A stretch of DNA of 64,000 bases. It comes from a bacterium (GTDB taxonomy: Bacteria > Bacteroidota > Rhodothermia > Balneolales > M1805). The stretch is taken from NCBI GenBank assembly GCA_006226965.1, contig SBGQ01000174.1:27919-91918 (forward strand), read 5' to 3'. The notes beneath the pieces were generated by a model. It had not been told where the DNA came from. It ran no database searches and was given only the letters and a program-made list of their open reading frames with translations. The position numbers and the translations under genes were made by a program. Below, piece after piece: positions 1,134 to 41,555 of this stretch (positions are counted from its first letter, which is position 1; every line of letters starts with the position of its first letter).

Positions 1134-1147
1134 AATGAGTGATTACT
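1132..1147. promoter_or_regulatory. 16-nt repeat ATAATGAGTGATTACT abutting the SDR start codon; candidate TetR operator
   Basis: An identical 16-mer recurs at 1725-1740, upstream of the TetR gene. It contains the imperfect inverted repeat AGTAA-N4-TCACT. Confidence 0.3.
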
Positions 1148-1195
1148 TACTTTTATTTTATACACAAAGGAATAGCCATTTGCTTCAGACGCATT

Positions 1196-1717
1196 TTAAA
1201 TGCCGTATTTCTGCATAATTGCTTTTAAAATAGACACGGAATGTTCCGGTTTTTTCAACAGAACTGCTGTAGCTATTCCGTCTAAAATGAGCAAGACAGC
1301 TTCCGCTTCTGCTTCAGGATTTTGATACGCCAGCTTTGTGAACGCATCAATCAACAATGTTCTAATGGGCTCCGACATATCATTTAAATAGATATCCGAT
1401 TGCCATTTTAACGAATATGATAATTTCCAGTACGGATGTTGATCTTTGGGAATCAAAAATGGAAATGAAAGAATGGAAGCTAATACATCTTTTGGATTGG
1501 AAAAGGTAGAAGCTTGCTTATACAACTGATCTATCTGCGCCTTTCCGTGATTCATAATAGCGCGCAAGAGACCTTCTTTATTTTCGAAGTGACGGAAAAT
1601 TAAACCCTCTGAAACTCCAGCAGCCTTTGCAATCTTTGCCGTAGAGGTTGATGCATAACCTTGTTCAGCAAAAAGCTTTAAAGCCGCATCTAAGATTTGT
1701 TCTTTTTTTTCAGTCAT
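1196..1717 (-). CDS. TetR/AcrR family transcriptional regulator
   Basis: N-terminal HTH (STSTAKIAKAAGVSEGLIFRHFENKEGLL). Size is 173 aa. It lies directly upstream of the SDR gene on the same strand. Confidence 0.85.
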   Translation of the reverse strand: MTEKKEQILDAALKLFAEQGYASTSTAKIAKAAGVSEGLIFRHFENKEGLLRAIMNHGKAQIDQLYKQASTFSNPKDVLASILSFPFLIPKDQHPYWKLSYSLKWQSDIYLNDMSEPIRTLLIDAFTKLAYQNPEAEAEAVLLILDGIATAVLLKKPEHSVSILKAIMQKYGI

Positions 1718-1724
1718 GGATAAA

Positions 1725-1744
1725 ATAATGAGTGATTACTCACT
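1725..1744. promoter_or_regulatory. Candidate TetR operator: inverted repeat AGTGA-N4-TCACT inside the repeated 16-mer
   Basis: The same 16-mer occurs at 1132-1147. The 5-4-5 inverted repeat is at 1731-1744, 8-27 nt upstream of the TetR ATG. Confidence 0.35.
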
Positions 1745-1780
1745 AAATATATTTCACCCACAACTGAAATGCAAATCGTT

Positions 1781-1987
1781 TTATTTCTTTTTTGATCGTA
1801 GTTTTCGAAGTGCATATGCTGCTCCACCGGCAGCAATAATGCCAAGTCCGCCATCGATTGGCGCCTGAGACGGCGCTTGTGGCATTCCCGGTGGTTGAGC
1901 ATATCCGGATTGTATAGAAATAACAATCAGTAAAAGCAGTATTGAAAATAAAAGACGTAACAATTTTGTTAATGCTGAATATTTCAT
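1781..1987 (-). CDS. 68-aa mini-protein: signal peptide, short Pro-rich linker, P-I-D-G-G motif, one hydrophobic helix and a basic tail (C-terminal sorting-signal-like)
   Basis: MKYSALTKLLRLLFSILLLLIVISIQSGYA|QPPGMPQAPSQAPIDGGLGIIAAGGAAYALRKLRSKKK. The start codon lies 3 nt after the stop of the 1608-aa gene. A paralog with an identical core lies at 11821-11991. Confidence 0.6.
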   Translation of the reverse strand: MKYSALTKLLRLLFSILLLLIVISIQSGYAQPPGMPQAPSQAPIDGGLGIIAAGGAAYALRKLRSKKK

Positions 1988-1990: not shown

Positions 1991-4900
1991 TTATTTAATT
2001 AGAGTCATTTTCATTGATTTATACATTCTTCCGTCTACACTCAAGGTGTAAAAATAAATTCCACTCGCTAAAGCTTCTGCATTGAAACTCTGTGCAAATT
2101 CACCGGCTTTAAATAGCCCTGAAATGGGCTCCGATACGAGTCTTCCAAGTACATCATAGACTTTAATTGACACCATTCCTGCGTTTGCCAAACTAAACTT
2201 AATCGTTGTTGTCGGGTTAAACGGATTCGGAAAATTTTGATATAAAGCCATTTGATATGATTTTTCCTGAGATTCATTGGATGTGGCTACCCCTGAAATA
2301 TCCAATCTAAATCTGTTTGATGTGTGTTGTTGCATGTGCACAGACGGCGCTTTCGTTGCATCAACACTAGTTTTTTGTGCGTTTTTCTCTAAGTCAAATG
2401 TATATGGTGTTGATAAGTCCGTTTCAGTTTGGGTAAGAATATCAACCAATTTTACATTCCATTCACTTGGAAACATAGTTTTGTCTAATGAAATTGTATG
2501 TCTTCCGCTTTCTGAACTGTTTACTTCAACAGGCAAACTAAAGTTGGCCACAGTTGTCGGTAAGTAGTTTATATCCATTACGTTTCCATCTTCTGAAACT
2601 GTACCAATTTGTACATATTTACTTGAAATCGGCGCTAATTTTAAAGCATCTTTTTTGTCTTTGTTAAATTCACCGTCTTCAGCAAATTGAATCCACGAAG
2701 TGTTTTTTAAGCCAGAATTATGAGTTATCTCTAGCTTAATCGCTGATATTTTCTTCGCCACTTCTTTTCCGAGAAAGGCATTCCCATCGTAATTTCGCGC
2801 AGATTGATAAATGGTTAGCGAAGGTGAATCATATTCGGTTTGTACAAAAAATCCATTTAAAGGCCCGATTAGTCCATTCGTCAACGAACCGACTGAACCA
2901 TTCCATGATTTCCATTCCGAATCGCTATTGTCCCATACATAGATGGATGAACTCAAATTACCTGGCGATAAACTATTCCAATCCAGATTAGCAATAAACG
3001 GATTTCCCAATAGAGTTAATCCGCCGACATTCTGATTTAGAAGGCTATCCACTTGTACATCGTTATATGAATCTTCAAAACCAGTAAAACTTATTTCTTT
3101 AGGAAATCCGGTATCTCCTTCTACTCCGGGACCATTATCATCACTAAACACATAAACCAGAACGCCTTTACCTCTTCGCAGGGTATCACTTAAGGAAGTG
3201 ATACTGTTCCAATTACTTAAAGAATCGTGATCAGTTGTGTTGTCCCATGTGTACACGTTAGAACTTCCGTGTGAAACAGAAGCGCCATCAAAACCTTGTG
3301 TCCAAATATCGGATAAAAGTGCTGAATACGGTTTTGAACCAACAGGCAATGATAATAATCGCCAGCCTTCTGTCCCGCTAAGCGTCAATGTTGCTTGTGG
3401 GTCTTGCAGATATAATTGGAAGTTATCATAACGTGCATACACGATGTCCATAACTCCGTCATTATTAAAATCTGCACTTTTATATAAGTAATAGCTGTTT
3501 TCAGGATCTAAAACAGCATAATCCGCAAAATTTCCACTTCCATTGTTAAGACGCACTTCAATCTCATCACCTTCACTAACCAAGATGTCTAAATCTCCGT
3601 CCGAATCCGCATCAATAAGATTTAAAATCTCGCCATATTTGTCGGCTTCATAACTATAAGGACTAGTAAACTCGCCATTTTCGTAAATAAAAATATAGAA
3701 ATCGTAATCATAGGTTGAGACTACCATATCCTTATCGCCATCGCCATCCAAATCTCCAAATTCAATTCTATTTGAGGAGTCAATCATAAATAGTGTTTGT
3801 GCATCTCCTAAGTAGGTATCACCAACATTTTCAATCCAATATATTTTTGGATCATCAGAGCCTTCGCTTACAACCAGATCTAATAATCCATCGTTATTCA
3901 TATCCATTAATTGAAAGCCTAAATAATCCTCTTCTGAATAATCTGTCGAAAAGGTTCCCGTAGTTACAAATTCTTGACCGCTATGATTTTTGAACACTTC
4001 GATTTCATAGTCTTCATAAATAACCAAGTCTATAAATCCATCATTATCTAAATCTCCAGCTCGCATTATTAATGCATCGTTAGATACGGAGTAGTTTTCA
4101 GAGGTTGTGAACGTACCGTTTCCATTATTTCTAAAAATGACTAACGCATTATAACCGGATGTAGCAATATCTATATCGCCGTCATTATCAAAATCTGCGG
4201 CTACAATTCCTAACACATAATTAGAGATATCGTACTCAACAGGAGTGGCAAAAGTACTATCCTGATTATTGATATAGATGTAGGTTTTCATGTTGGAACG
4301 GGATAAAATCACATCTGTGTAACCGTCACCATTTAAATCTGCCACCTCCATTGCCGTCGGATTTCCTGAATAACTATCCGTAAAGTAATCAGAAAAACTA
4401 CCTGCCCCAGGATTTGTAGCAATAGTGAATGTATAGGACTGAGAATTTTCAAAACTGTTATTTTCACCAAGAATATCTTTACTTAAACTAACCGTAACCG
4501 TTTCGCCTTCTTTGAAATCTGTTGTTGGGTCAAATATCAATTTGGCATTGCCATTGGCGTAGGAAATACTTCCGGCATGATTACCGCTTAAACTTCCATA
4601 TACTAAAAAGGTTGAATCGTTAGTAATGGTTGCTGTATCCAATGCATCACTAAACGTAATCTCAATATTTGTTGATTTTGAAACATTTAGACTGTTTTTT
4701 GCCGGACTAACTTGGGTTACATAGGTTGTTAACTCAATTTCTATGGATGATGTAGGTGCATCGGTTAGTAAATATTTTTCTACTCCTGATTCCCCGTTAA
4801 ACGAATACACCGCTATATAATACGTTTCGCCCGGCTCCAGATTTGTAATTCTCATTTCTGTTGATTGACCATTACTTATCACAAAATTACCGAAACCCAA

Positions 4901-6817
4901 TTCATCACCTGAACCAAAGTTCAATGAAGCATCATACGTAACTCCGTCTACCGGACTGGCATCAACAGCACTTCCCTGCTTCATAACAACCAAATTATTT
5001 ATTCCATTTCCGGCTGTAAAGGATAAATCAGCTGATGTAACTCCGTTGTTTTCTAAAGCCAGACTCGAAACTTGTACCGTTGGTGTAGATAGCGGTAAAT
5101 CAAGATTGTATTTATCTGATAAATAAGTTGCTACTTCTAGCCGTTCTTCTACACTAAGTTTTTTGTTGTAAATGATAATCTCAGCAATACGTCCACCCAT
5201 ATATGCGTAGGAATATTGACTATCTGTACCGATATAAATGGTATCGTCATCACCATTTTGAAAATCGAAACTATCATTTGAACCGTATAATTTTCCATTA
5301 ACTCTTATTTCACCGAGTGAACTCGTTCCACTTGCATTAACTACGTGAAAATTATTATCAAAAAATTCTGATGCCACACCTGCGCTTACCGATGCATTAC
5401 TGTTACCCCAAAATGCAATGCCATTTTCATACTCAAGTAATTGAATAAATGGAGCGGTTTGCCCGTAATTATTACCAATTATTGGAACATAATTGGCTTG
5501 ATTGGCTTGCACTACAATAAACATATCGTAGTCGGAATTTTGAATACCTAAGTCTCCCGATGTTGGCAATTCCATAAATTGAGTTGATCCATTGAATTGA
5601 ACTGCTCGAAGACTGTTTATTGCATTTTCAGTAACCGTTGGTTGAATACTATTATTAGATTGTTCGGCATTGTTTCCTTTTCCGGTGAGGTCGTGCCATA
5701 CAGAAATTGGGTCATCACTATCATAGGTATCCAAGGTTAAATCTGCGGCATACCACAATTTTAGACTGTCTTTTGTAAATGTTGTATTACCAACCCAAAT
5801 TGCCTGCATTTCTGAATAAACAGTCCCGTTTACATAGTTTGCGGCTAAGCTAGCATAATAAACGGTGTTTGAATCTAATTCTGTAACCTCAAATTGGATT
5901 GCATCATTCGAAATACCAGTTCCACCATTTATTACACTCGTTGTTGTAGATAAAGAATTAGGATTAGTGCCATATACTAATTGATAACTCGTGGTTGATG
6001 AAGTTTCAACAGTGGTACTAAACGTAAAGGATGTTGTTGAAGTATTGCTTAATTCTACATTTGTAAAGACAGGTTCTTGATTAATTCCGTATTTATTTTC
6101 TAAGTAATCTTCAACTGAATTTCTGTCTGTTTCACTTAATTCTGCACTATAAATAATTACTTCTGCTATATCGCCGCTAAATGGCAAGGTTAAATTTGAA
6201 CGAATTCCTAAATAAAGTGTCCCGGCATCATCTGTCTGTACATTCAATGCGCTTACTGTTGAATCAGCTCCATTCACTTGAACAATTCCATTCGAAGCCG
6301 TAGCTCGCATATTGAATATATAAGGCGCCGCATTTGAATAATCGCCAATAGAACCTTCATCAATATAGATTGATGCTTTGGGTATAAAACGAACTCCGGC
6401 GGAACCGTTCAAATGAACTTCATATCGTTCTATTGAACCACCTAATAAAAATATTGTGCTTGTTGTAACACTACTCGTTTTTGCAACAATGAATATTTCG
6501 TAATCATTGCTTTGAATAGCGAGCGTACCGGCTGATGGAAGAGTTAAATAATCATTAACTCCGTCAAAACGAATAACCGGATATCCGTTTATAACATCAT
6601 TTACGATAGTCGGTTTATTGGTTTCCGAAACTTGTGTTACCGAGTTTAGATTACCGGACTGATCTGCCCATGCACTAACATATCCGCCCGATGAGGTAAC
6701 TCCGGCATTAGCTTTAATATGTAATTCTAAATTCGTTGTTGGTATTTGTGCATGTAATAAAGTTGCCGAACTGAACACCAGCACAAATGTGAGTAGTTGA
6801 ATAGATAATCGTTTCAT
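1991..6817 (-). CDS. Giant secreted T9SS cargo protein (1608 aa): 2 LamG-like jelly-roll domains, FN3/Ig-like domains, FG-GAP/VCBS repeat block, conserved C-terminal module, T9SS C-terminal sorting domain
   Basis: Signal peptide (LLHA|Q). LamG-type signature DIAEVIIYSAELSETDRNSVEDYLENKYGI occurs twice. There are 7 or more D-x-N/D-x-D-G repeats (DLNGDGYTDV, DFDNDGDIDI, DLDNDGFIDL, DMNNDGLLDL, DLDGDGDKDM, DADSDGDLDI, DFNNDGVMDI) at about nt 3430-4400. The C-terminus NFPNPFNPTTTIKFSL...GIYFYTLSV...MTLIK is typical of T9SS type A CTDs. Confidence 0.85.
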   Translation of the reverse strand: MKRLSIQLLTFVLVFSSATLLHAQIPTTNLELHIKANAGVTSSGGYVSAWADQSGNLNSVTQVSETNKPTIVNDVINGYPVIRFDGVNDYLTLPSAGTLAIQSNDYEIFIVAKTSSVTTSTIFLLGGSIERYEVHLNGSAGVRFIPKASIYIDEGSIGDYSNAAPYIFNMRATASNGIVQVNGADSTVSALNVQTDDAGTLYLGIRSNLTLPFSGDIAEVIIYSAELSETDRNSVEDYLENKYGINQEPVFTNVELSNTSTTSFTFSTTVETSSTTSYQLVYGTNPNSLSTTTSVINGGTGISNDAIQFEVTELDSNTVYYASLAANYVNGTVYSEMQAIWVGNTTFTKDSLKLWYAADLTLDTYDSDDPISVWHDLTGKGNNAEQSNNSIQPTVTENAINSLRAVQFNGSTQFMELPTSGDLGIQNSDYDMFIVVQANQANYVPIIGNNYGQTAPFIQLLEYENGIAFWGNSNASVSAGVASEFFDNNFHVVNASGTSSLGEIRVNGKLYGSNDSFDFQNGDDDTIYIGTDSQYSYAYMGGRIAEIIIYNKKLSVEERLEVATYLSDKYNLDLPLSTPTVQVSSLALENNGVTSADLSFTAGNGINNLVVMKQGSAVDASPVDGVTYDASLNFGSGDELGFGNFVISNGQSTEMRITNLEPGETYYIAVYSFNGESGVEKYLLTDAPTSSIEIELTTYVTQVSPAKNSLNVSKSTNIEITFSDALDTATITNDSTFLVYGSLSGNHAGSISYANGNAKLIFDPTTDFKEGETVTVSLSKDILGENNSFENSQSYTFTIATNPGAGSFSDYFTDSYSGNPTAMEVADLNGDGYTDVILSRSNMKTYIYINNQDSTFATPVEYDISNYVLGIVAADFDNDGDIDIATSGYNALVIFRNNGNGTFTTSENYSVSNDALIMRAGDLDNDGFIDLVIYEDYEIEVFKNHSGQEFVTTGTFSTDYSEEDYLGFQLMDMNNDGLLDLVVSEGSDDPKIYWIENVGDTYLGDAQTLFMIDSSNRIEFGDLDGDGDKDMVVSTYDYDFYIFIYENGEFTSPYSYEADKYGEILNLIDADSDGDLDILVSEGDEIEVRLNNGSGNFADYAVLDPENSYYLYKSADFNNDGVMDIVYARYDNFQLYLQDPQATLTLSGTEGWRLLSLPVGSKPYSALLSDIWTQGFDGASVSHGSSNVYTWDNTTDHDSLSNWNSITSLSDTLRRGKGVLVYVFSDDNGPGVEGDTGFPKEISFTGFEDSYNDVQVDSLLNQNVGGLTLLGNPFIANLDWNSLSPGNLSSSIYVWDNSDSEWKSWNGSVGSLTNGLIGPLNGFFVQTEYDSPSLTIYQSARNYDGNAFLGKEVAKKISAIKLEITHNSGLKNTSWIQFAEDGEFNKDKKDALKLAPISSKYVQIGTVSEDGNVMDINYLPTTVANFSLPVEVNSSESGRHTISLDKTMFPSEWNVKLVDILTQTETDLSTPYTFDLEKNAQKTSVDATKAPSVHMQQHTSNRFRLDISGVATSNESQEKSYQMALYQNFPNPFNPTTTIKFSLANAGMVSIKVYDVLGRLVSEPISGLFKAGEFAQSFNAEALASGIYFYTLSVDGRMYKSMKMTLIK

Positions 6818-6957: not shown

Positions 6958-9900
6958 TTATTTAATCAACATTAATTTTTTTGTAACCACACCTTGTTTA
7001 CTGCTCAGTCTATAAAAGTACAAGCCTGATGCCAGATTTGATGCATTAAACTGTACTTGATGATATCCCGCATTTCGCATTCCGTTTACTAAGGTCTGCA
7101 CTAAACGACCTGTTACATCATAAATCTCTAGACTTACCTGATCTGCTTTCGGCAAAGAAAATTTTATGGTAGTACTTGGATTAAACGGGTTCGGATAGTT
7201 TTGAGCGAGTTCAAATTGTGCGGGAATCTGCGATTCGATGCTTGTGACTTCGCCACGTTTTATGCTTAACACGAAACGGTTTTCCATGGCTGTTTGACCC
7301 GTGATTTCAGGCTGTTTGCTCACATCAATGGCTTGCTTTTTGGAAACCGTGTTCGAAACAAAGCTGAGTTTGCCTTCACGGTTGATGAATGCTCCCGATT
7401 GTGTGTCGTGGAGTTCTACTTTCCAGTCTTGGGGCAAGTTTACATTCGAGATTGCCATTTCGTGTGTTCCCGAATACGTGCTGTTCACAAAAACCGGAAT
7501 TTCCACTTCGTTAAACTCTATCGGTAACTGATTGCTATCCAGTAATTTTCCGTCAGCGTCTTGGGTTGAGATTTGCACATAATCCCATGACAAAGGAACG
7601 AGTTTTAAAGCGTCGAGTGCGTCTTTTCCTTCGAGTCCATGTTCAGAGAATTCAACCCAGGCTTTGTTCGATTTACCTGATTCGGTATTAATCTGCAATT
7701 CAACCAAAAATTGATTTTTTGCCACTTCTTTGCCCAGAAATACCGAATTACCTTCCACTTTTGCTGATAATGGTACACTTAGTTCAGGAGAAGCATCCAT
7801 AGTTTCTACAAAAAAGCCATTGAACGGACCAATGAGCCCATTGGTGAGTCCGCCTGTGCTTCCATTCCAGGTTTTCCATTCGGATGCTGAATTATCCCAC
7901 ACATACACCGAGCCGGATAAATTGGGTTTACTCATCAAATCCCAATCGATGTTGGTGGAAAACGGATTTCCAACTAAGCTCCAGCCATTTGTATTTGGAT
8001 TGATGAAAGAATTCATATTCACATCTGCGCTTGGACTAAATCCATCGGCTCGTAGTGTTTTGGGGAATCCGGCATCGGTGGCATTGTCCGGTCCATCATC
8101 ATCGCTGTAGATGTAGGCTAAAATGCCTTGACCCGGAGTAAAGGTGCTGGCTGCATTGGTAAGCGGTGTCCACTGTGTAGAATCGCGGTTTCCGGAATTG
8201 ATCGGCCAGGTATAGACATTCGCTGCGCCTTGTTCGAACGCCGCGCCCGTAAAGCCTTGTGTCCACAGACCACGGAAAAACGAAGCGTACGAAGAATCGG
8301 CAACTGGCGAAGAAAGCAAGCGCCAGCCTTCGGTTCCTGTAAGACTCGCCGACTCGTTTTTGTAGTTCTGAATGGCATATTTCTCGAATAAATGTGTTTC
8401 TACTTGGTTTCGTTCTGCTGCGCTGAGTACCTTGTTGTAGATAATCACCTCTGCAATGTCTCCATAAAAGGTGAACGAATTATCAGCTCTCACACCCAAG
8501 TAAAGATGACCGGCCAAACTACTTCGGGCGCTTCCTGCGTGAGTGGTTTGCGTACGATTTACACTCATTACCCCTTCTGTATCCGACGCCCGCATATTAA
8601 ACACATGCGGCTTGGTATCGGTATAGTTTCCGGCAGTTCCCACATCCACATATTTTCCCGCATTGGGGATAAACCGCGCTCCAGCGGCTCCATTTAGATG
8701 CAACTCATATTGTTCCAGAGATTCGCTTCCAACCAGAAAATTAACAAAACTCGAATGGCTCACTCCCGATTGGGCAACTAGAAACAATTCGTAATCGGAA
8801 TTTTGAATTCCTAAATCCGCTGCGGTGGGAAGCGTTACATACGTGTCGGTTCCATTAAAACGCAATGCCGGCAAATGGTTGATGGCGCTATCCAACACAA
8901 CTGCTCGTCGCGCCAAATTATCCTGAAAAGCATTCTGATTGGCATCTGCCAAATTGCTCCATGTATTCACCGAATCGTTGGAAGTGATAAACCCAAGCCG
9001 TCCTGCATCCAGATGCAGTTTTAAATTTCCGGTGGGAATCGGACTTGGGAGTGTGGTAAAATTAGCGATTCGTGTAAATAACGGTTGATCTAGATAATCT
9101 GTAGAAAGAGACCCATCATTTAAGAAACCATTTCCAAAGGCTCCATAAGCTTTTGTTCCTTCTAAGACCCAGCCAAAACTTTGAACTGATCCATCCCCCA
9201 TTAATGCCAATCCATGATAAAGTTGTGCAGTAAAATCAATTACTTTTTTACCATCCAAATCGGAGCTTATCACCTGATAAGGAACCGTTCGATCTAGTAC
9301 TGGGCTTGTATTAAATCCCGCATATCTCACGGTTCCCCAGCTGAATAGTCTTCCGGATTCTGTACGTAACATTGAACTTTTAAATCCGGCTGAAATACTG
9401 AACACCCTTTCCCCATTGAGCATGGTATCAATAATTGCTGTGGGCGTTTTTACAATGGTTGAATTTTTATACCCGAGTCCCAATGCGCCATCAGAATTTT
9501 CACCCATAGCAAGTACTTGGTAATCTTCATTCAAAAACAGGAAGTGCGGAGAAATTACTGCACCTCCTCGATCTAAATATCCAATTGAGGCATCCAGAAT
9601 TTTCTTACCACCTACATTGATATGAGAAGCTAAAGTAGGCACATTCAAATCATTGGAGTTTCCAAAACCCATGTAATCATTGTTACCCTCTCCCCACATA
9701 TACACTGTTCCATCTGAAGCAATAGCAATACTCTGAAGTTGCCCTGCTACTACTTTCACAATGGATTTACCGGATAGATTCGCGGTTACCGGAGTAGGTA
9801 CAAACCGGTTTTGAAAATCTCCAACTCCCAATTGGCCACTTTCGTTATTTCCCATGGCAAAAACAGTTCCATCGTCTGCCAATAAGAGGGTATGACTATT

Positions 9901-11529
9901 ACTTTTATTTTCTACTTCTTGGTTAATAATACCATGAACTGAAACATCAACAATACGTTTTCCTGTCAGATTTGGATGTGTAATTAATGTAGGGATATAC
10001 ACATCAACACTATCCCCTAAACCCAGATTTCCGGAATTGCCCCTACCAAAACTAAATACTTTCCCTTCATCAGTGAGTAAATAGGTGTTGCTTCCACCGG
10101 CTTTAACATCCACGATCCGATGGCCCTCCAAATTACTATGCTCAAGTTTGGTCGGAACTGCTTTAATGGAATTAATATCCAGCAAAAAAAGGGGGAAACC
10201 GATTTGGTCAGAAGGAAAAAGTACATTAAAAGATTTTTCTATGTTCAGCAGAAAAACCTGACCATTTGTGCTTAGCAATAAGGCGATATTGCCATTTACC
10301 TCCATTCTGCTAATGGTTTCACCTTGCAAAAATGCCGTATTTATGGGTAGTGGTCGGGATAAAATGCCTGAATACCCCGTTCCTGCACCTATTCCTGAAC
10401 CATATAGAGTACCATCACTGGCGCGAAATAAAGAGAATTTTTCGCCAACTTTTGCTTCCACAATAGGTTTATTATCAAAATATGCGGCAGGGATTTTTGT
10501 CCAGGCTGTATCGGTATTTACAAAATCACCTTTACCTAAAACTCCGTTAGTAGCTTCCCCGACCACATATACAGAACCATCGGTTGTGGTAACTATGGTG
10601 CCTACAATGTTTGATAGACTTATCGTTGAAACACTGCTAATGGCTTTCCCTTCCAGGCTTGAATGGGTTACCGGTGCCGGAAACAGCAGGTCTGAACTCA
10701 AGGTACCCATGCCTAAACTTTCTCGAAAATTGCCAACCGAAAACAAGGTACCATCGGTAGTTAGGATTCTATGTACCCCCTGTGCGAGTGCCATATCTTT
10801 AATGGTTTTACCTGCAAAATATGACATAGGCATAGCCACAGGAATGGTTTGTGAAATAGTACTACCAATCCCAATCTGTCCGTTTGAATTTTCCCCAAAG
10901 GCGTACAAGGTATTGGCATCGGTGAGCAACAGCCTTGCATTGTCACTTCTGCCCATTTTTACCACTTTTTCCCCGTTCAGATTCGTAAGATTTAACGGGG
11001 TTATATGCGTCACTGTGCTTACTGATAGACTGGTACCTAGATATGCGTTGTTATTTTTTCCGGCCCCAAAAACGGTCCCGTTATCAGAGAGAAAGAAGGA
11101 AAAATCATCCCCTGCCAAAACCTGAATAATGTTGGCGGTATCTAACGCCGCATCGTTAAGTTGAAACAGTTCATCGAAATATTCACCTGTATAATTGATA
11201 CCGAATGGATTCTCGCTACCTCTTCCCGTTCCATATACGGCCCCATCGCTGGTTAGAAACAAAATGTGTGTGCTGGATATTGAGAAATCAACTACCGTTT
11301 TGCCAATTAACAGCGGATGGTTTATCGGACAGGCAAGATCCAAACGTTTATCGCCACCGTGACCAATCTCACCGTACAATCCAGCCCCAAAAGTATAGAC
11401 ATCATTATTTTCGTCGAGCACAACGCTATGGTAGGCGCCAACGGCAATTTTGGCTTTGTTGGTTTGCCCCAAGGCGGTTTGGAAGAGAAAAAGAACAAAC
11501 AAACAAATGTTAGTTACAATTCGAATCAT
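6958..11529 (-). CDS. Giant secreted T9SS cargo protein (1523 aa): N-terminal RCC1-like beta-propeller repeats, LamG-like domain, conserved C-terminal module, T9SS CTD
   Basis: Signal peptide (TALG|Q). Many RCC1-type motifs are present (GAGLYGEIGHGG, GENSNGQIGIGS, GRGNSGNLGLGD, GNNESGQLGVGD, GENSDGALGLG). LamG signature YGDIAEVIIYNKVLSAAERNQVETHLFEKYAI. The C-terminus is NYPNPFNPSTTIKFSL...GLYFYRLSS...LMLIK. Confidence 0.85.
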   Translation of the reverse strand: MIRIVTNICLFVLFLFQTALGQTNKAKIAVGAYHSVVLDENNDVYTFGAGLYGEIGHGGDKRLDLACPINHPLLIGKTVVDFSISSTHILFLTSDGAVYGTGRGSENPFGINYTGEYFDELFQLNDAALDTANIIQVLAGDDFSFFLSDNGTVFGAGKNNNAYLGTSLSVSTVTHITPLNLTNLNGEKVVKMGRSDNARLLLTDANTLYAFGENSNGQIGIGSTISQTIPVAMPMSYFAGKTIKDMALAQGVHRILTTDGTLFSVGNFRESLGMGTLSSDLLFPAPVTHSSLEGKAISSVSTISLSNIVGTIVTTTDGSVYVVGEATNGVLGKGDFVNTDTAWTKIPAAYFDNKPIVEAKVGEKFSLFRASDGTLYGSGIGAGTGYSGILSRPLPINTAFLQGETISRMEVNGNIALLLSTNGQVFLLNIEKSFNVLFPSDQIGFPLFLLDINSIKAVPTKLEHSNLEGHRIVDVKAGGSNTYLLTDEGKVFSFGRGNSGNLGLGDSVDVYIPTLITHPNLTGKRIVDVSVHGIINQEVENKSNSHTLLLADDGTVFAMGNNESGQLGVGDFQNRFVPTPVTANLSGKSIVKVVAGQLQSIAIASDGTVYMWGEGNNDYMGFGNSNDLNVPTLASHINVGGKKILDASIGYLDRGGAVISPHFLFLNEDYQVLAMGENSDGALGLGYKNSTIVKTPTAIIDTMLNGERVFSISAGFKSSMLRTESGRLFSWGTVRYAGFNTSPVLDRTVPYQVISSDLDGKKVIDFTAQLYHGLALMGDGSVQSFGWVLEGTKAYGAFGNGFLNDGSLSTDYLDQPLFTRIANFTTLPSPIPTGNLKLHLDAGRLGFITSNDSVNTWSNLADANQNAFQDNLARRAVVLDSAINHLPALRFNGTDTYVTLPTAADLGIQNSDYELFLVAQSGVSHSSFVNFLVGSESLEQYELHLNGAAGARFIPNAGKYVDVGTAGNYTDTKPHVFNMRASDTEGVMSVNRTQTTHAGSARSSLAGHLYLGVRADNSFTFYGDIAEVIIYNKVLSAAERNQVETHLFEKYAIQNYKNESASLTGTEGWRLLSSPVADSSYASFFRGLWTQGFTGAAFEQGAANVYTWPINSGNRDSTQWTPLTNAASTFTPGQGILAYIYSDDDGPDNATDAGFPKTLRADGFSPSADVNMNSFINPNTNGWSLVGNPFSTNIDWDLMSKPNLSGSVYVWDNSASEWKTWNGSTGGLTNGLIGPFNGFFVETMDASPELSVPLSAKVEGNSVFLGKEVAKNQFLVELQINTESGKSNKAWVEFSEHGLEGKDALDALKLVPLSWDYVQISTQDADGKLLDSNQLPIEFNEVEIPVFVNSTYSGTHEMAISNVNLPQDWKVELHDTQSGAFINREGKLSFVSNTVSKKQAIDVSKQPEITGQTAMENRFVLSIKRGEVTSIESQIPAQFELAQNYPNPFNPSTTIKFSLPKADQVSLEIYDVTGRLVQTLVNGMRNAGYHQVQFNASNLASGLYFYRLSSKQGVVTKKLMLIK

Positions 11530-11820: not shown

Positions 11821-11991
11821 TTACTTTTTCGATTTTAGCTTTTTGAGCGCATAACCTGCGCCGGCGATTGAAAGCACAGCGATTCCGCCATCTATAGGCG
11901 CCTGAGACGGTGCTTGTGGCATTCCCGGTGGTTGTGCGAATAGAATTTTGGGGGATACAAGTAGAAATATGGTGAGTAAAAAGGTTTTCAT
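11821..11991 (-). CDS. 56-aa mini-protein, paralog of 1781-1987 (signal peptide + QPPGMPQAPSQAPIDGG + TM helix + basic tail). Absent from the ORF track because it is under 60 aa
   Basis: My own translation gives MKTFLLTIFLLVSPKILFA|QPPGMPQAPSQAPIDGGIAVLSIAGAGYALKKLKSKK*. The 18-aa core is identical to the 68-aa ORF and about 45 nt are nearly identical at DNA level. It lies 95 nt downstream of the 3232-aa gene on the same strand. Confidence 0.6.
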   Translation of the reverse strand: MKTFLLTIFLLVSPKILFAQPPGMPQAPSQAPIDGGIAVLSIAGAGYALKKLKSKK

Positions 11992-12086
11992 AGAATTCGG
12001 TGGTTTAAGTTTCGTGTGATTGTTGTGCTCGTTTGATAATTGGTTCGGGATCGGTTATGCCTATTGCTTAAACCCAACACCTTTTT

Positions 12087-15000
12087 CTACTTTATCAGCA
12101 TCAACTTTTTTGTAACCACACCTTGTTTACTGCTCAGTCGGTAAAAATACAATCCCGAAGCTAATCCCGATGCATTGAACTGTACCTGATGATACCCCGC
12201 ATTTCGCATTCCGTTCACTAAGGTCTGCACTAAACGACCCGTTACATCATAAATCTCTAGACTTACCTGATCTGCTTTCGGCAAAGAAAATTTTATGGTA
12301 GTACTTGGATTAAACGGGTTCGGATAGTTTTGTGAAAGTCCAAACTCTGTGGGAATTTCATTTTCAATCGAGGAAACCAGATTATTTTTGATTCTCAATA
12401 TAAAACGTGATTCAGATGTGCTTTGACTTTGAATTTCCGGCTTATTAGAGTTTTCTGATTGAGATTTCTTAACTGAAACTGCGTAATCAAATGTAATCAC
12501 ATCATCCATTGCATACTCCACACCTGATTGTGTATCAAACCAACGAATAGTCCAATGCTCCGGAACAGAAGGCGCTTGCAATGATAATTGATGTGTTCCA
12601 TTGAATGTACTGTTTACATGAACAGGAATATCCAATTGGCTGAATTCCAATGGCAGTGTATTGATATCCAATAACTTACCATTTTCCAACTGTGTAGAAA
12701 CCTGAACATATTCAGATGTTAGCGGAACAAGTTTAATTGCATCAAAACGGTCTTTATTTAACAAACCTTCATTTGAAAATTCTATCCAGCTTTCATTTTC
12801 TAAACCTTGGTTGTTTTTTACTTGCAATGAAAGGGCAACGATTTCTTTCGTATTTGATTCGTTCTGAGAACTTGTGTTTGCTTTCCCTAAGAAAATAGCA
12901 TCGCTTGTTACTTTAGCCGTTTCCGATATGCTTAGTGTTGGCGAACTTGCCGAGGTTTCAACAAAAAAACCATTAAAAGAACCAATAATACCATCGCTAA
13001 GCGTACCGACAGAACCATTCCATGTTTTCCATGTTGATGCGCTGTTATCCCATACATAAACGGCTTCTGTTACATTCGTTTTGTTCACTAAATCCCAATC
13101 AATATTGGTATTAAACGGATTTCCAAGAAGAGTCCAACCGCCTGCATTCGGATTTAATAAGGAATTCAGATTTACATCTCCATAAGGTGTAAACCCGTCT
13201 ATTTGAAGTGTTTTGGGGAAACCCGCATCGCCTTCTACTTCCGAACCATTATCATCGCTAAACACATAAACCAAGGCTCCGCTTCCACGCTGGAAACTTG
13301 ACGCTGCGTTTGATAAAGGTACCCAGTTTGTAGAATCTCGATCGCTACCGTTAATTGGCCATGTGTACACATTTGAAAAACCATTCGGTACCGTTGCGCC
13401 TGTAAAACCTTGTGTCCAAATGCCATCGAAGAACGATGCGTAAGTCGAATCTACAACGGGTGTTGATACCAATCTCCAGCCTTCTGTTCCTGTAAAGGTG
13501 AGTTCATTGGAAATGGTTTGATTCATAGGAATTGTTGAATTTTTCCAATTGGAACCGGAATCATAATTGAAGTTTGACATCGACGCCGACAAATCATTTT
13601 GATTTTCTGATGTAAGCGTCCCGCCGCCTTCATTAAACTGGAAGTATGCGACTAAATCAGGATAATAATCATCGCTTAAGCTACTGTTTTTATTGTCTGA
13701 TATTTCTTGTTGTGTTCTCGCAGAATTCCAAATTCTGAACTCATCAATTTCACCTGCAAAATGTAAGTTTTGAGATACTTGTCTACGACCAATATTCACA
13801 GGATTATTTGTTACCATAATGGCTTGAGCTAAAGAGCCGGAAGTGGCTCCCGTAGCATCAACTCCGTTAATGTAGATTTTCCCTAAGGATTGAGAGGGGT
13901 CATAAACCGCAGCAAAATGAGTCCATTCTCCGGGCGTAAATGCTTCTGCAGGAGTATCTATATACACGCCGTATCTTGGAATAAAACGAATCCCGTTCGA
14001 GCCCATTCCGAGATGAACTTCCCATTCTTCACTCCCTCTTGATACAACAAACTCAACTGCACTTCCGCTATGACTCCATTTAAACCAAAACTCCATAGTA
14101 AGCTTGTTTATAGTAAAAGCAGAGTTATATGGAATTGAGAGAAAATCATTTGTTCCGTCGAATAGAATTGAGCTACCTGCAAAATCATCGAATCCAACCG
14201 TAAAATCACGCGCAATCATAAACTGACCAAATTGTGAGAGGGTATCAAATGTAACTGTATTTGATGTGGTAGAATTTGCAGAAGAACGTATTTCCTGCCA
14301 GTTACCAACCGACCCAAAATCTCTACGATATAATGTGAATTGAGTCGGATGTACCTCGCCGAATTTCATTAAAGATTCAGGAACTGTAAATGTTAATGAC
14401 GCTTTGTACGCACCTGCATTTCCGGCTTCATATACAACCCAATATTGATTATTCAAATTAATTGTATTCCCGGATGGAATCAGATTGGGTTCTACAGTAA
14501 ACCGTTTTGTTAATACAGAAACCGTGTTATCAAAATCTTCTGTTATTGTGATGTTTAAGTCGGACGCGTTTAAACTGCCTGATGTTAAATCGGTAAAAGC
14601 TGCGTAATCACCCTGTCCGAATGGAATAGCAGAGTCTCGCCATCCGTTTGTGCCATTAAACTCCATATTTTCTAAAACAGCATTCGTCCCTGAAATCGGA
14701 TCTACAGTAGTAGTTCCACTGCCTTCATTGAATTGTAAGTTCACCAATAAGTTTTCAAAACCTGAACTTATGTTCGTAAACATACCGCTTCGAATTTCTT
14801 CTACTGTTCTGATGTCATTCCAAAAACGAAATTCATCTATTTGACCCTCAAAACATAGAGCGTAACTTTTTCTGGCGCCTAATAACAAATCTAAACCTGT
14901 ATTTCTTAGTGCCGTTGTAAGCGGATTGCTTCCATTATTTGTAAGAGCTACTTCATTTCCGTTTATTACCATTCTTGCAAACGATTCATCAGGATTGTAA

Positions 15001-18000
15001 GAAACGGCGATATGGTTCCATTTTCCGAATTCAAATACATTTGCCGGCGAATCCAAATACACACCGACTGTTGGTATAAAACGAATAGATTTGTTTGAAT
15101 TAATAAGGTGAATTTCCAACTCCTCGCCGTCCATAGCGGTTAGAAACGGCACATCTGTTACTCCGGCTGTCGGGTTAAACCATAGTTCTAAGGTAAACTT
15201 ATCAACTATAAATTCCGGATTATGAGCTATTCGGACACCTTCGTCAGCGCCTCCAATAGCTATTGCTGATGATGCCGAATTAGTAGGAACTGATGTTAAC
15301 GTTTTTGTTGAAAATGTGAGTGGAGTAGTGGTTAAATAATCTTTCTCATAAACACCATTATACTCAAAAACGGCAATATTATATGTTGTTCCCGGTGTCA
15401 AGCCTGTTAAATAAATCGTAGAGTCTGAAACTACGGGAATAGCATAATTTCCTGTTCCTAATTGTTCCCCGCTGCCGAATACACTATTGGGTGAATAGAT
15501 ATTTCCATCAACCGGAACTGCATCCACAGCAGTAGTAGCTTTTGCAAGTACAAATCTTTTACTACCATTTCCTTTGTGAACGCTAAATCCTAGTGAATTT
15601 GTTGTTTTTGATATTACTTGCGGCGATGAAGCTTGAATAGTTGGTTCAGAAACATTGACTAAGTCTATTGCATATTTTCCAGAGAGATAGGCATTTATCG
15701 TGTTTCTTGTCGATATATCAAGAGCTTTATTGTAAACGATTACTTCAGCAATATCTCCATCATAGTAGAATGAACCTCCGGTTCGAGTTCCTAAAATAGG
15801 ATCACTCACATTTGCTGATCGTGTACTACTATTTAGCAAGCCTACCAATTCGTTATTAACCCGAATACTTCCTAATGCATCAGTTGATTGCACATTGATA
15901 ATCCTTGCCGTTCCATCTGTGTATTGGGTACTGCTGCCTGCATCAACATATTTGTCTCCAGTTGAAATAAACCGAACTCCGGAAGACCCGTTTAGTTGGA
16001 TTTCCTTGTGTCCTACTCCTGCGCTCCATACAAATTGAATGGCATCTGATGCAGATTTTAATACGATAAACAGTTCATAATCTGAATCTGTAATTCCGAG
16101 ATTTTCGGGATTTAAGGAAGCCAAATACTGATTAATTCCATTAAAACGTATCACCGGCTGGGAATTTATACCCTCTTGAACGACTACCGGTTGATTTGGA
16201 ATTCCTGTTTGTACAAAATCATTTTCAATAGAAGTTCCGTCTAACCAAGCTGCTACTGAACTTCCTGTACTTATTGTTAGGCCACGCCCGGCAGATAACC
16301 ACAACTTCAAACTATCTGAAGGGACAGATTCATCGTGCATAATGCGTCGTAAGTCTGAGGTATAAACCCCTTGAGCAAAAGAAACTTCAATTTTGTAAAA
16401 CAGAAAGTTTGTCAAATCAACTGAGTTTATCGTTTCATTAACTGTAATCTGAGCGATGCTTCCATCGAAGTTTTGCGATGAAGTTACTGATGAAAGATTA
16501 GAAGCATTTGCACCGTAAATCACACGATACGTGCCGCTCAGACCAAAACTTTCAAACTGCGCATGTAAGTCGAAAGAAGTCTCTGAAATATTACTTTCAT
16601 CCGATACGGTTATTAAAGATGATGCGATGTCTGAATAATCGTAGAAATCGGCCTCATTGGACGCAACGTTCGCATTAGCAGCTGTTCCAAACGTGTTATT
16701 AGATAAAATAACAACACCGTTTGCGTTAAAAATTGCACCTCCATAACTCTTCCCATTGTTTATTTCTGTATTCTGGCCACCAATACCGCCAATTGCAGTA
16801 TTTCGATTAAATACTGAGTTTTGAATAAATACTTGGCCTGAACGATTGAATACGGCTCCACCCATTCCGGCACCACCACCACCATAATTTGTTGAACCGG
16901 AATAAGTTGCACTTCCACCGCCAAACGCACTTACTCCCGGTGTTCGTTCTAACCAAATTCCATTTGGTTCCGCCGCCGCGCCGCCGCCGCCGCCAAATCC
17001 ACCGTTTCCACCATTAATAGGATCACTTTGTTGAGTTACAACTGCTCCGGAACCGCCACCAGCTGCAAACCCCCCATGTCCCCCATTTGGCCTTCCCGAA
17101 TTACCTCCGGCACCAACACCACCACTTTCTCCTAATTCCACTCCAGGATTTCCACCCAAATACCCGGAGTATCCTCCGTTACTGTTTAGAGCATCAGAAG
17201 CAAAACCACCGCCTTGACCAGAACCTCCACCAGCTGAATAGGATGCGCCTCCTTGTACCGTATTGTCTTCAAATAACATATTGTTAAGCGTCACATTTCC
17301 ATCATTTACAAAAATGGCCGCACCCATTCCGGCGCCCCCTCCACCTATGGAGTATGCATTTCCGCCTTTTCCATATCCATTAGTGACTGCCAAACCCTGC
17401 ATTGTTACTGTCGGAGCTGCAGGAATTTCAGGAGTAAAAGGAGTAAGCCCAGAGCCAATGAAAAACGGACGATATAAATTATTTCCACTTATAGTTAGAG
17501 AACCAGACCCCGGACCATTTATTTGCATATCATAATTGATAGCAGGTAAATCAGATGTGAGAGTAATTGTGCCACTAATTTTAGACATATCAACCACAGT
17601 AGTAGCTTCCGGTGCAGCTGTGTTGATGGTGTTCAACACATAACGAAGACTCCCGTATTGTCCCGAACCTACATTATCATCTAAGGTATTTGTTACAAAG
17701 TAATAGGGTAAAGTAACTGCATATTTTGCCGCCAAATAATGCTCAACATGAGCTAGTTCTAATTCTGTTAATTCAGCATTATAAATTAAGACTTCTGCAA
17801 TATCGCCATCAAAATAATACGTACCATCTCTACGAGCTCCCAAAATTAGATTCCCGGATGCATTTACCAAGGCATTTGAATTACCCGTAACACTGTTCCC
17901 GTCAATTCGCAACCCACCCGAACTTGAAGTCGCTTTTGCATTAATGATATGGAACTCACCGTCTGTGGAGTTTATCGGATTATCTATGTAATAACCTGAT

Positions 18001-21000
18001 TTGGGTATAAAACGTGTTCCAACTTCGCTTCCAGGACGAGTATGTATTTCGTAATTCGGAACTGGACCTCCCATTAAAAAACCAATCGAAGCAGACGAGG
18101 TTTTGGCAACAATGAATACTTCATAGTTATTGTTAATCAAACCTAAAGAATCAGTTAAAGGCAATTCCAAAAAGTCTGAAGAACCATCGAATCGAAGTAC
18201 AGATACGCCCGAATCTGTAACTCTTGTTGGACTATCAGCGACATTGATTTGATACGCTTTTGTTGCTTTACCAGATTGGTTCGACCAATTGCTAACCGCC
18301 TCACCTGAACTTGCAGTATAAGTTGCCTGATCTCCCGAAGCCCAAAATTTTAGTGACGGAAGACTGATGTGTTCCCGATAGGTAAATGTCACTATTTCAG
18401 ATTCGGTACTTCCGCCAACGTTTTCAGCAACAACTTTATAATAATATGTCGTATTTGCTGATATTCCTGAAAGTGCTATTTGAACGCTTTGTTCGGACGA
18501 TTGACTCCCAACTGCTTGTGCTGATGTACTCATGTTCAAATTATCATACGATGTTCCAAATACAACCTGTGCCGTTGTAGCGTAGCTATTTGGATTCACA
18601 AAAGCTATTACACTTGGCGTTGATGTATGGGTATTTTCAACCGAATACAAGGAAACGGCAGGTGGAATTACACTAGTCGTAGACTGGTTGGTTGATGCGG
18701 TTGAAGAAGTTCCATAAATCGGCAATCCTTCCATGAGATCGTATTCATATACATCGATAGTATATTCTGAACTAGCTGCTAGTCCGGTTAAGCTAACAGA
18801 CGTTCCAGTACCCTTTCCCACAACATAATTGCCGTTTCCAATATGTGATCCACTTCCAAAATTTGGATTGGCAGAATACGAAACACCTTCAGTAGGAGCT
18901 GTTTTTTGTGAACTACTAAGTCTGGCAACGATTAATCGTTCAGTCCCATTTCCTGCATCCATTGAAACCGAAAAACCGGTTGGTTGAATAGATGTGAAGG
19001 CGAGATTGGACGCTTCAATCGAAGGAATTGAGGGATTATATACAGAAACAGCATATCGGGTTGACAAGTATTGGGAAATTTCCATCCGTTGTTCCGCTGA
19101 TAGCGTAGATGCAAAAATCATTATCTCTGCAATTTGACCAATAAAATCTCTGGAACTATAGTGATTAATGCTTCCAAAGTATATTTCTGTACTAACTAGG
19201 GTTCCAGTATTCGCGTTTACTGCATAATCCCCATTATCAACCCGAATTGTTTTCGATGTTGAATTCCCTTTAAAGTGCATCACATGAGGATTCCCATCTG
19301 TGAATGCGTTTAGACTACCCGTATTCGCTCTATCATAATAACTTCCGGCTGACAATCCCGCTCCAACATTTGTACCTATTTCCAGTAAACTGTTGGTTGA
19401 TGTTGAAAGCAGATATTGTTGATTTGTATTGGTCGTTTTAAAAACGATAAAAATCTCTATATCCGTATTGATAACACCTAAGTCCGATGCACTTATTCTT
19501 AAATCGTTTGAGCCCGTAAATTCGAGTGCTGTTTTACCATTAACTGAAAGTGTTCGTGCTGGTGCTCCACTACCTAATTTTAGATCATGCACGTTACCAG
19601 ACATGTCTTTAAGAAAATTATTATTTGCTCCACCAAGTATATAATCCCCATAATCTGCTCGCCACCACGCTTTCATATCTGTGGTACTCATAGGAATAAA
19701 CATAAACACTTCGGACTCTACTGATCCTCGTAAGTTGGTGACTCTAACCTTTCCGTAATAAGTCTGACCTAATGTCAATCCTGTAACAGTAAGGGTATCA
19801 TTAAGATCTACTGCTCCGCTACCAACGGAATGACCGGCGGCTGTAGACCCAAAGGTGATATTATCGGTACCATATATAAAGTCTGCCGTAGTTTCCCATC
19901 CATTGGGATTCACGGCATAAACAAATGATCGCGTTGTTGCGGTTCCATCACCGTGCTCAACAGCCGATAAGGTTGGAAATGGGACAAGCGTTGTACTCTG
20001 CGAACCTACTGCCGGGCTTGTAGTTTTAAAACAAATTGTCCCGTTGTATTCATTGAATTCATACACCGCTACAAAGTAAGTAGTAGAATTTGATAAACCG
20101 GTAAGCGTAAACGAATTTCCATTGCCTTTATAGGCTACATAATTACCGCTTCCTAAATCTTGTCCGCTTCCAAAGCTCGAATTAGCAGAATAGTTTTGTC
20201 CATCGCCAGGAATTGCACTTACTGCTTGACCTTCTCTTACTATTACCAGACGATTTTGCCCATTTCCGGCAGTAAATGAAACAGTCATTTGATCTAATCC
20301 AACAGAAGAAAACTGCACGGCACTTGCAGAAGATGAGGGATATGTAATTCCTGAATTTACCGGAGGATTTACAACTTGATATTTTGGAACACCATTATAC
20401 ACTTCATATTCGTAAGCGGCTAAGTGATAAACGGAACTTGCTGCAAGCCCGTTTAGGCTAAAACTGCTTCCGTCTGATCCGGCATAAATCACATAATTTC
20501 CACTTCCAATTTCAGAGCCAGCTCCGAACGTTGCGTTTCCCGTGTACGAAACTCCATTTGATGGTGCTTGATTTACAGCACTTCCTGCGCGAGCTACAAC
20601 CAAACGATAGGTACCGTTTCCGGCAGAAACACCGCCTGTAAAAGCATTATCGGTTCTACTTATAATGCTTAATGAGCTAGCCTGAGTTAAATCTACTGTT
20701 GTTTGATTTCCTGAAACTGCACTTCCATATTGTGGAACGCCACCCACTAAATAGTATTCATAAACAGCAAAATGATAACTTGAATTAAACTCTAGTCCGC
20801 TTAATGCTGTTGATGTTCCATCTGTTCCGGCGTAAATAACGAAATTTCCATCACCTAAATTCGAACCGGCACCGAAAATTCCGCTTCCGGTGTAAGCAAC
20901 TCCATTAGTCGGCGCAACAGTAACAGATCCACCTTTACGCGCAACTACAACGCGATGTGTACCCGAACCTTTTGTTAAATTCACATTCATCGAACTCTTG

Positions 21001-27996: not shown

Positions 27997-28325
27997 GGTT
28001 GATAATTAATCAAAATCATTCTTATTACTTGAACTTCTGAAACACTATTTGCAGTTCTACCCGTGTATAATTTACAAAAATAGACCCCTTCAATCAGGTC
28101 TGATGAATCTATTTCTATCGTATGTTGTCCAGCAGACAAAGGCTTATTTTCAATCACAGTTTGCACAATAGTACCATAGGAATTTTCAACTGTTACGGTA
28201 ACATAACTATTAGATTGAATAATGAATCCCACCATTATTCTTATGTCTTCCATAGAATCCATACTTGTTGATCTACAGGATGATAACACCATCATAAATA
28301 ATAAACCGTAAAGAACTTGTTTCAT
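27993..28325 (-). CDS. Small lipoprotein-like protein consisting essentially of a T9SS-type C-terminal sorting domain
   Basis: The internal start MKQVLYGLLFMMVLSSC is preferred because the longer ORF overlaps the upstream gene. The remainder (VTVENSYGTIVQTVIENKPLSAGQHTIEIDSSDLIEGVYFCKLY...) follows the T9SS CTD pattern. Confidence 0.45.
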   Translation of the reverse strand: MKQVLYGLLFMMVLSSCRSTSMDSMEDIRIMVGFIIQSNSYVTVTVENSYGTIVQTVIENKPLSAGQHTIEIDSSDLIEGVYFCKLYTGRTANSVSEVQVIRMILINYQP

Positions 28326-28359
28326 AAAAACCCTATTTAACTTTAGAATCCGATAAAAT

Positions 28360-40534: not shown

Positions 40535-40613
40535 TCGCCGGCCGATCCGTTAAAAAAATTGTTTCTGTTAGATTTAAATCGTTCTTTGAAATATTGATTT
40601 TACGTGTGGTCGA

Positions 40614-41544: not shown

Positions 41545-41555
41545 CAAATACAAAG

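Follow-up and report, generated by a model that had tools for sequence, protein, structure and literature searches.

A window of 64,000 nucleotides (nt) from a member of the Balneolales (contig SBGQ01000174.1, assembly GCA_006226965.1) carries, at positions 1781..1987 of the minus strand, a gene for a protein of only 68 amino acids (aa) that lies immediately downstream of a gene for a protein of 1608 aa, a type IX secretion system (T9SS) cargo. This small gene, here called mini gene 1, is a genuine gene under strong purifying selection and encodes a small membrane protein that belongs to the PID-CTERM family. The conserved unit to which it belongs is a cassette, in which a cargo gene encoding a variable N-terminus, a region that we call module X and a T9SS C-terminal sorting domain (CTD) of type A is followed by a mini gene. 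As to function, we consider it somewhat probable that the mini-protein is a dedicated substrate of an exosortase of the X type (XrtX) and works with the neighbouring cargo.

The open reading frame (ORF) and its translation (MKYSALTKLLRLLFSILLLLIVISIQSGYAQPPGMPQAPSQAPIDGGLGIIAAGGAAYALRKLRSKKK) match the NCBIfam model NF046080 PID_CTERM with 34 bits, above the curated cutoff of 26 bits, residues 43-66 of 68 aligning with profile positions 2-25 of 25. The domain sits at the extreme C-terminus of the product (APIDGG-LGIIAAGGAAYAL-RKLRSKKK), and Pfam PF28310 PID_CTERM is recorded on the public gene call. A previous reading of the window, made from the sequence alone, had likened the motif to a PID-CTERM class of Bacteroidota; that class does exist, as NF046080, and two copies in the window exceed its cutoff. 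The second one, mini gene 2 (11821..11991, minus strand; 56 aa, MKTFLLTIFLLVSPKILFAQPPGMPQAPSQAPIDGGIAVLSIAGAGYALKKLKSKK; 29.4 bits), was found by a six-frame motif scan; with it, the earlier reading withstands one of its own refuting conditions, a genome without other PIDGG-tailed proteins. It lies 95 nt downstream of another cargo gene, cargo gene 3, and its QPPGMPQAPSQAPIDGG segment is identical to that of mini gene 1. Mini gene 1 thus truly belongs to a family already catalogued and does not represent a new kind of element. Its product is without a T9SS CTD (TIGR04183 / PF18962), and the 1608-aa protein upstream has one.

Homologues were sampled by scanning one genome per GTDB species, which gave 153 confirmed loci, 77 of them fetched. 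Nearly all sampled loci come from Balneolaceae or Balneolales, including isolates of Gracilimonas and Aliifodinibius, and several genomes hold many copies. In a gap-free block of 28 codons from 90 distinct homologous genes, the entropies at codon positions 1, 2 and 3 are 0.54, 0.40 and 1.65 bits and the pooled ratio of nonsynonymous to synonymous variation (pN/pS) is 0.23; the reading frame, whose conservation the sequence-only reading had named as a check, is therefore under purifying selection. In the QPPGMPQAPSQAPIDGG region of these 90 genes, positions 1 and 2 have an entropy near zero and third positions are saturated. The family is large: searched against 1.84 billion representative proteins, its profile recovers 1345 clusters (50% identity) at E <= 1e-3. 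These data effectively refute, and leave next to no probability for, the idea that the ORF arose by chance and is not translated, serves as a decoy or has degenerated from a larger PID-CTERM protein, an idea to which its very short length might have pointed. Besides the selection itself, the clusters share the same small size, large relatives that might have been its source are lacking, and where genomes carry multiple copies each of them stands in the same place with respect to a cargo gene. The decoy, which the sequence-only reading had put forward, is thus without support.

On the minus strand the junction with the upstream gene reads ...TTA ATT AAA TAA ATC ATG AAA..., with the ATG of the mini gene 3 nt past the TAA of the 1608-aa gene (1991..6817), which agrees with the spacing TAA-ATC-ATG given before. 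Residues 1-30 (MKYSALTKLLRLLFSILLLLIVISIQSGYA; 1898..1987), as read from the sequence, are a predicted Sec signal peptide: a basic n-region precedes a hydrophobic core, positions -3 and -1 are occupied by G and A, and cleavage would fall at A|Q (G-Y-A|Q). Among 16 homologues there is little or no variation at A30, Q31 and P32, while the remaining N-terminus is variable. Gln is also found at +1 of the predicted cleavage sites in the three giant cargo proteins of the window, in line with the Bacteroidota 'Q-rule'. The signal peptide is followed by a proline-rich, putatively periplasmic segment, QPPGMPQAPSQAPIDGG (residues 31-47; 1847..1897), which ends in P-I-D-G-G and in whose alignment Q31, P33, P36, P39, Q41, A42, P43, I44, D45, G46 and G47 are invariant columns (first 16 homologues). 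Next come a hydrophobic span rich in Gly and Ala, LGIIAAGGAAYAL (residues 48-60; 1808..1846), and the basic tail RKLRSKKK (residues 61-68; 1784..1807), which is predicted to be cytoplasmic and of which K62 is invariant in the alignment of 16 homologues; both were read from the sequence. In 88 of 92 homologues, exactly 13 residues separate PIDGG from the first charged residue. The tripartite layout of motif, membrane span and basic cluster that had been proposed is accordingly correct.

It had also seemed odd that a protein should consist of nothing but such a signal. This is not an oddity of the locus but the rule in the family: all 92 occurrences of APIDGG, 90 in the fetched loci and 2 in the window, belong to mini ORFs, which are 56-86 aa long, and lengths of 40-154 aa, always with a C-terminal match, are seen in the best 150 of the 1345 clusters. 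No large ORF bears the tail among all ORFs of at least 40 aa in 1.4 Mb of related DNA, scanned with a hidden Markov model (HMM) of the tail with filters off; the exclusion of large carriers rests on this permissive scan, as the tail of ~25 residues by itself could not reach significance in the library of 1.8 billion proteins. Among all members detected, the PID-CTERM domain occurs solely as a stand-alone mini-protein. One subfamily, with members of 129-154 aa that still pass the PID_CTERM cutoff, adds an N-terminal zinc ribbon (P0038, P0043, P0049, P0061, P0063, P0071, P0074, P0075, P0080, P0085, P0097, P0100 and P0102). The same type is encoded at L060:9779-10210 and L041:9764-10180, both downstream of a module-X cargo, and its N-terminal extension has no significant Pfam match.

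The cargo genes explain what the mini genes are paired with. Cargo gene 1 (1991..6817, minus strand; 1608 aa) encodes Laminin_G_3, Big_5 and FG-GAP repeats, which are followed by module X and finally by the type-A CTD (36.7 bits on TIGR04183, 39.9 bits on PF18962). Cargo gene 2 (6958..11529, minus strand; 1523 aa) has RCC1 repeats and Laminin_G_3 ahead of module X (residues ~1058-1430) and a T9SS CTD, and cargo gene 3 (12087..21785, minus strand; 3232 aa) has repeated Laminin_G_3 ahead of module X (residues ~2759-3143) and a T9SS CTD; these domains were assigned with Pfam, NCBIfam and home-made HMMs. Module X of cargo 1 (residues ~1136-1523; 2249..3412, minus strand) is a beta-rich stretch of ~385 aa directly before the CTD, without any Pfam or NCBIfam match, and its conserved motifs are EGWRLLS, WTQGF, LLGNPF..IDW and VYVWD. 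Three paralogous copies, all on the minus strand, lie in the window at 2249-3412, 7240-8358 and 12357-13511. An AlphaFold2 model is confident and all-beta (pLDDT 77.5, pTM 0.78); a Foldseek comparison with folds in the PDB gave no match (best E-value 0.23, query TM-scores <= 0.12), and a profile search against PDB sequences matched the CTD only. Module X is a candidate new domain family, worth a family model of its own.

Across the sampled loci the pairing is conserved. A same-strand ORF of at least 80 aa, ending within ~600 nt upstream, precedes 82 of the 92 minis, and 74 of these 82 upstream genes have a T9SS CTD homologous to that in the window, while a single phmmer pass found module X in 63; an HMM of module X matched 97 ORFs. 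Among ORFs bearing a CTD, a mini lies downstream of 86/95 with module X versus 6/37 without it (Fisher p = 2.5e-16, in loci preselected for the presence of a mini). The N-terminal parts of the cargos are diverse (LamG, FG-GAP, RCC1, LTD, DUF285, among others), and the cargos themselves measure ~600 to 3200 aa, with one complete upstream ORF of 360 aa; since both vary so widely, the partner of the mini is module X and not gene size. The proposal that the mini is a partner for a giant T9SS cargo consequently fits the conserved synteny of cargo and mini, but giant size is irrelevant to it, as cargos of any size with module X are accompanied in this way. Cargo 2 (6958-11529, minus strand) has module X and a CTD with no mini of its own downstream, as do 9/95 of the module-X cargos sampled, and for this reason minis may act in trans, or one mini, that downstream of the next gene, may serve cargo 2 as well.

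Translational coupling, suggested by the 3-nt spacing at mini gene 1, does not hold as a feature of the family: the gap between cargo and mini has a median of 89 nt and is 15 nt or less in just 4/79 cassettes. In 42/58 gaps of 50-200 nt a long, very stable hairpin stands right past the cargo stop (z < -2; median z = -4.5 versus shuffles). Its sequence differs among loci and its structure persists, usually lacking a U-tract (for example in L007, L008, L012, L050, L055 and L075). The hairpin is lacking at both junctions of the window, that is, at the 3-nt gap and at the 95-nt gap (z = +0.3), where generic promoter and terminator scans also stayed at background level. A promoter of the mini's own was considered as well; the Bacteroidota-type element TAnnTTTG occurs in 13/91 upstream regions versus 7 in a control region, which is unconvincing.

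The lead towards an enzyme comes from outside the Balneolaceae. Module X is also present in Marinimicrobia, where the cargo is followed 10-20 nt downstream by an ORF of 56-58 aa, for example MNKIMWIMVFLSIGLLMAQPEFPSAPNQAPIGGLGVLAAAGGALALKKLWEKKKGN and ...AQPGFPDDPPQGPIGGLGLLAAAGGALAIKKLRDRRKN; these are clear homologues of the PID-CTERM minis, minus the Asp, and one that adjoins an exosortase gene exceeds the PID_CTERM cutoff with 27.5 bits. In five Marinimicrobia/Fidelibacterota lineages (L084/085, L087-089, L091, L092 and L093) the gene order is module-X cargo, 58-aa mini, exosortase. The exosortase gene, for a product of 168-183 aa, overlaps the mini gene or starts within 40 nt of its stop. 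Aligned with NF046081 'exosortase X' over its full length, the enzymes reach 137-159 bits, versus 44-58 bits on XrtF and XrtY, the next-best specific subfamilies, and they retain Cys94, Arg135 and His154, which are invariant in 85 exosortase sequences. The consecutive accessions NF046080 and NF046081 suggest that the curators built the two models as a pair. An exosortase-X-like enzyme is thus a candidate sorting enzyme for the minis. A membrane protein gene (164-171 aa; no Pfam or NCBIfam match) usually comes after the XrtX-like gene and overlaps its 3' end (L084:5705-6220, L087:588-1088, L092:3983-4477, L093:3989-4498), an arrangement that recalls the pairing of XrtF with the 'exosortase F-associated protein'. 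Convergent to this partner gene is a rhomboid-family gene at L092:4474-5298 and L093:4499-5332, absent from the other three arrangements.

The association with an exosortase family member holds for the PID-CTERM family, in those five lineages, and not for this genome. The sequence-only reading had seen no exosortase-, rhombosortase- or sortase-like gene in the window, and this stands after searches with Pfam (non-nested ORFs of at least 150 aa, except a 173-aa ORF recorded as TetR and a 273-aa ORF recorded as a short-chain dehydrogenase), with tblastn and with a home-made HMM of the 85 exosortase sequences, the last two run on the window and all fetched loci. Nor does ~8 kb of the source contig past the left edge of the window contain an XrtX-like gene. 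Clustering of the neighbours in Balneolaceae loci returned as recurrent genes only the cargo and a hybrid kinase/AraC regulator. With a Marinimicrobia enzyme as query, a protein search confined to relatives of at least 50% identity gave named relatives from Marinimicrobia/Fidelibacterota, plus one Caldithrix protein.

The scheme that we favour, whose two cleavages, transfer step, acceptor and physical link to the cargo we infer, would run as follows. The mini would be exported by Sec and its signal peptide removed by signal peptidase I at A|Q, which would leave 38 residues: the 17-residue proline-rich QPPGMPQAPSQAPIDGG in the periplasm, the 13-residue Gly/Ala span in the inner membrane and the Lys/Arg tail in the cytoplasm. 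A small cysteine transpeptidase of the XrtX type, located in the inner membrane, would then recognise the mature mini as a whole. A span of 13 residues is short for a stable inner-membrane helix and fits a recognition element. The enzyme would cut at or next to P-I-D-G-G and pass a proline-rich peptide of ~14 residues to an acceptor, the membrane span staying behind, by analogy with PEP-CTERM/exosortase and PGF-CTERM/archaeosortase. Exosortases have been proposed to cut near the motif, so that the helix stays in the inner membrane, and to conjugate the new C-terminus (PMC7468200). The conserved pairing with a module-X T9SS cargo argues that the mini product works with the upstream cargo, and specifically it may act with module X beside the CTD; the most plausible joint role would be surface attachment or handling of the cargo.

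Several observations weigh against this scheme. A conserved acidic stretch (e.g. ...EEENIDL) prolongs the basic tail in 50/92 homologues, and 13 of the 150 best clusters carry an N-terminal CxxC...CxxC zinc ribbon and a basic linker ahead of the first hydrophobic segment; neither would be expected of membrane parts that are simply discarded. Conservation reaches ~12 residues upstream of the motif and so takes in the whole 17-residue loop, beyond what a sorting motif needs. The Marinimicrobia minis read P-I-G-G, and the enzymes beside them stay under the XrtX cutoff of NF046081 (170 bits). The window contains no XrtX-like gene, and none was found up to 10 kb from any of ~90 Balneolaceae mini copies, so that an XrtX in Balneolaceae, if it exists, would be unlinked. 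In addition, no exosortase substrate of the PID-CTERM mini kind is known to have been examined biochemically.

The acidic extension, the zinc-ribbon variants and the conservation of the whole loop keep alive an alternative that we regard as possible but doubtful, namely that the mini is no sorting substrate and remains a small, unprocessed inner-membrane protein, either bitopic once the signal peptide is removed or, with the first segment kept, a helical hairpin. It would then be a cargo-specific accessory, which might for instance hold or present the module-X cargo in the periplasm before export, or it might report the state of secretion to the cytoplasm or the hybrid sensor kinase nearby. 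The zinc-ribbon fusion would place the N-terminus in the cytoplasm and turn the first hydrophobic segment into a membrane helix, which implies a hairpin topology. Moreover, in Balneolaceae the minis are tightly linked to module X and to no enzyme, the hybrid kinase/AraC regulator recurs in 22 loci, and small membrane proteins that modulate sensor kinases, such as MgrB and SafA, offer a precedent. An intact mini sits poorly, however, with an exosortase gene directly after the mini gene, and often overlapping it, in five Marinimicrobia lineages, and with a hydrophobic span that is short for a stable transmembrane helix; its architecture is also like that of exosortase signals, and the curators classed it so. 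Processing by a different intramembrane protease, either a rhombosortase acting on a GlyGly-CTERM-like tail or a site-2 protease, is in our judgement very unlikely. Rhomboids cut helix-destabilising Gly/Ala-rich segments, and a G-G pair stands immediately ahead of just such a span in the mini; the convergent rhomboid-family gene of two Marinimicrobia loci could be read in the same sense. Yet the GlyGly-CTERM model does not match the 68-aa product even at E <= 10, no rhomboid gene is found in the other three Marinimicrobia arrangements or among the window ORFs scanned with Pfam, and it is the exosortase that is consistently adjacent.

Dedicated exosortase substrates such as we propose here can be compared with several known systems. 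At the level of the model the window copies do not differ from PID-CTERM (NF046080 / PF28310), whose C-terminal P-I-D motif, hydrophobic span and basic tail they share; the name implies a tail on larger proteins, whereas the members found have 40-154 aa and the domain is approximately the whole mature product. With PEP-CTERM/exosortase (EpsH) the system shares the signal peptide, a short Pro-containing motif, a membrane span, a basic cluster, several paralogues per genome and, in Marinimicrobia, genetic linkage to an exosortase-family enzyme. Classical PEP-CTERM proteins, in contrast, have a substantial passenger and belong with exopolysaccharide loci, while the PID-CTERM mini has a passenger of ~14 residues and belongs with T9SS cargo genes; furthermore, the enzyme of the mini system is minimal (~170-180 aa), the tail is rich in Lys and not in Arg, and the hydrophobic span has a fixed length of 13 residues. 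TIGR04200 ('targ_of_XrtJ, PExPT-CTERM protein'), a 57-residue profile of signal peptide, motif and transmembrane segment with a dedicated exosortase, provides a database precedent for a mini-protein that is solely an exosortase target. Two homologues of the window protein align weakly with it over the full length (E = 3e-4 and 0.05), but its motif is PExPT, the 68-aa product does not match it (cutoff 40 bits), the homologues reach 13-20 bits only, and we know of no T9SS link for XrtJ.

A dedicated accessory gene that adjoins an individual cargo gene is likewise known from the PorP/SprF-like partners of T9SS cargo with type-B CTDs, as in SprB/SprF of Flavobacterium johnsoniae. Those partners are outer-membrane beta-barrels and go with type-B CTDs, whereas here the CTDs are of type A (TIGR04183) and the partner is a mature peptide of 38 residues with an exosortase-type signal. 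XrtF of Flavobacteriia resembles the Marinimicrobia arrangement in that a small exosortase (~170-180 aa) of the Fibrobacteres-Chlorobi-Bacteroidetes (FCB) group is followed by the gene of a small membrane partner, the exosortase F-associated protein; it differs in that the Marinimicrobia enzymes score 46-58 bits on the XrtF model versus 137-159 on XrtX, and in that no mini substrate has been reported for XrtF. According to the authors of a study in F. johnsoniae, the substrates of XrtF are unknown and unlike PEP-CTERM, and mutants of xrtF and of the partner gene share phenotypes with the T9SS mutants porU, porV and porZ: sand colonisation is reduced, biofilm is much reduced and zorbs are abolished (PMC10936215). 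The connection between T9SS and exosortases is a live question because of these shared phenotypes, and it can be tested via the cassette.

The library of papers searched contained no mention of PID-CTERM or of XrtX / exosortase X, and exosortase combined with T9SS gave background papers; PID-CTERM and exosortase X exist as database models only. The cassette offers a concrete and testable triad of substrate, enzyme and partner for small FCB-group exosortases with unknown targets, and hints at cross-talk of an inner-membrane sorting enzyme with an outer-membrane secretion and attachment system. We speculate, as an idea that is unlikely as it stands, that XrtX and T9SS are mechanistically coupled: every module-X cargo gene would come with a mini gene of its own, and the ~14-residue peptide released by XrtX, once joined either to the cargo or to a carrier made of lipid or glycan, would serve as a cargo-specific linker or anchor, or as a ligand of module X, during attachment to the cell surface by the T9SS sortase. 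Such coupling, if true, would be a peptide-based alternative to the anionic lipopolysaccharide (A-LPS) anchor of Porphyromonas and would suggest targets for orphan small exosortases of Bacteroidota such as XrtF. Possibly novel are the mini-only membership, the zinc-ribbon subfamily and the cassette of module-X cargo and mini, as well as the occurrence of this cassette in Marinimicrobia, where an XrtX-like gene adjoins it. The annotation 'protein-sorting domain-containing protein' is misleading for the mini genes.

The hybrid regulator at 21934..25836 (minus strand) combines, according to Pfam, Reg_prop, Y_Y_Y, HisKA, HATPase, Response_reg and HTH_18 in a sensor kinase, receiver and AraC-type protein. 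It lies directly upstream of the cargo cluster, with homologues at most 7 kb from a mini in the 22 related loci, and may regulate the cluster. In L029, the closest fetched relative (70-82% nucleotide identity), the homologue of mini gene 2 is ~0.7 kb from the pair of TetR and short-chain dehydrogenase genes (window 339-1751 and 11833-12048 versus L029:1357-3717); on account of this adjacency the ~10-kb segment with cargo 2, cargo 1 and mini 1 appears either to have been inserted or duplicated in the window lineage or to have been deleted in L029. Elsewhere, a stand-alone CTD-like ORF of 128 aa (27993-28379, minus strand; E = 1e-7 with a home-made T9SS CTD profile) is flanked by ORFs of outer-membrane-barrel-like or lipoprotein-like character without Pfam matches (27355-27996 and 28360-28875). 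Finally, the stretches 39689-44423 and 45756-63590 contain three tandem flagellin genes, fliD, a sigma-54 activator, cheA/W/R/D/X/B/Z, flgK/L/N and flgI/H/A/G, and these flagellar and chemotaxis genes together with the T9SS cargo indicate an organism that has both flagella and a T9SS, as expected in Balneolaceae.

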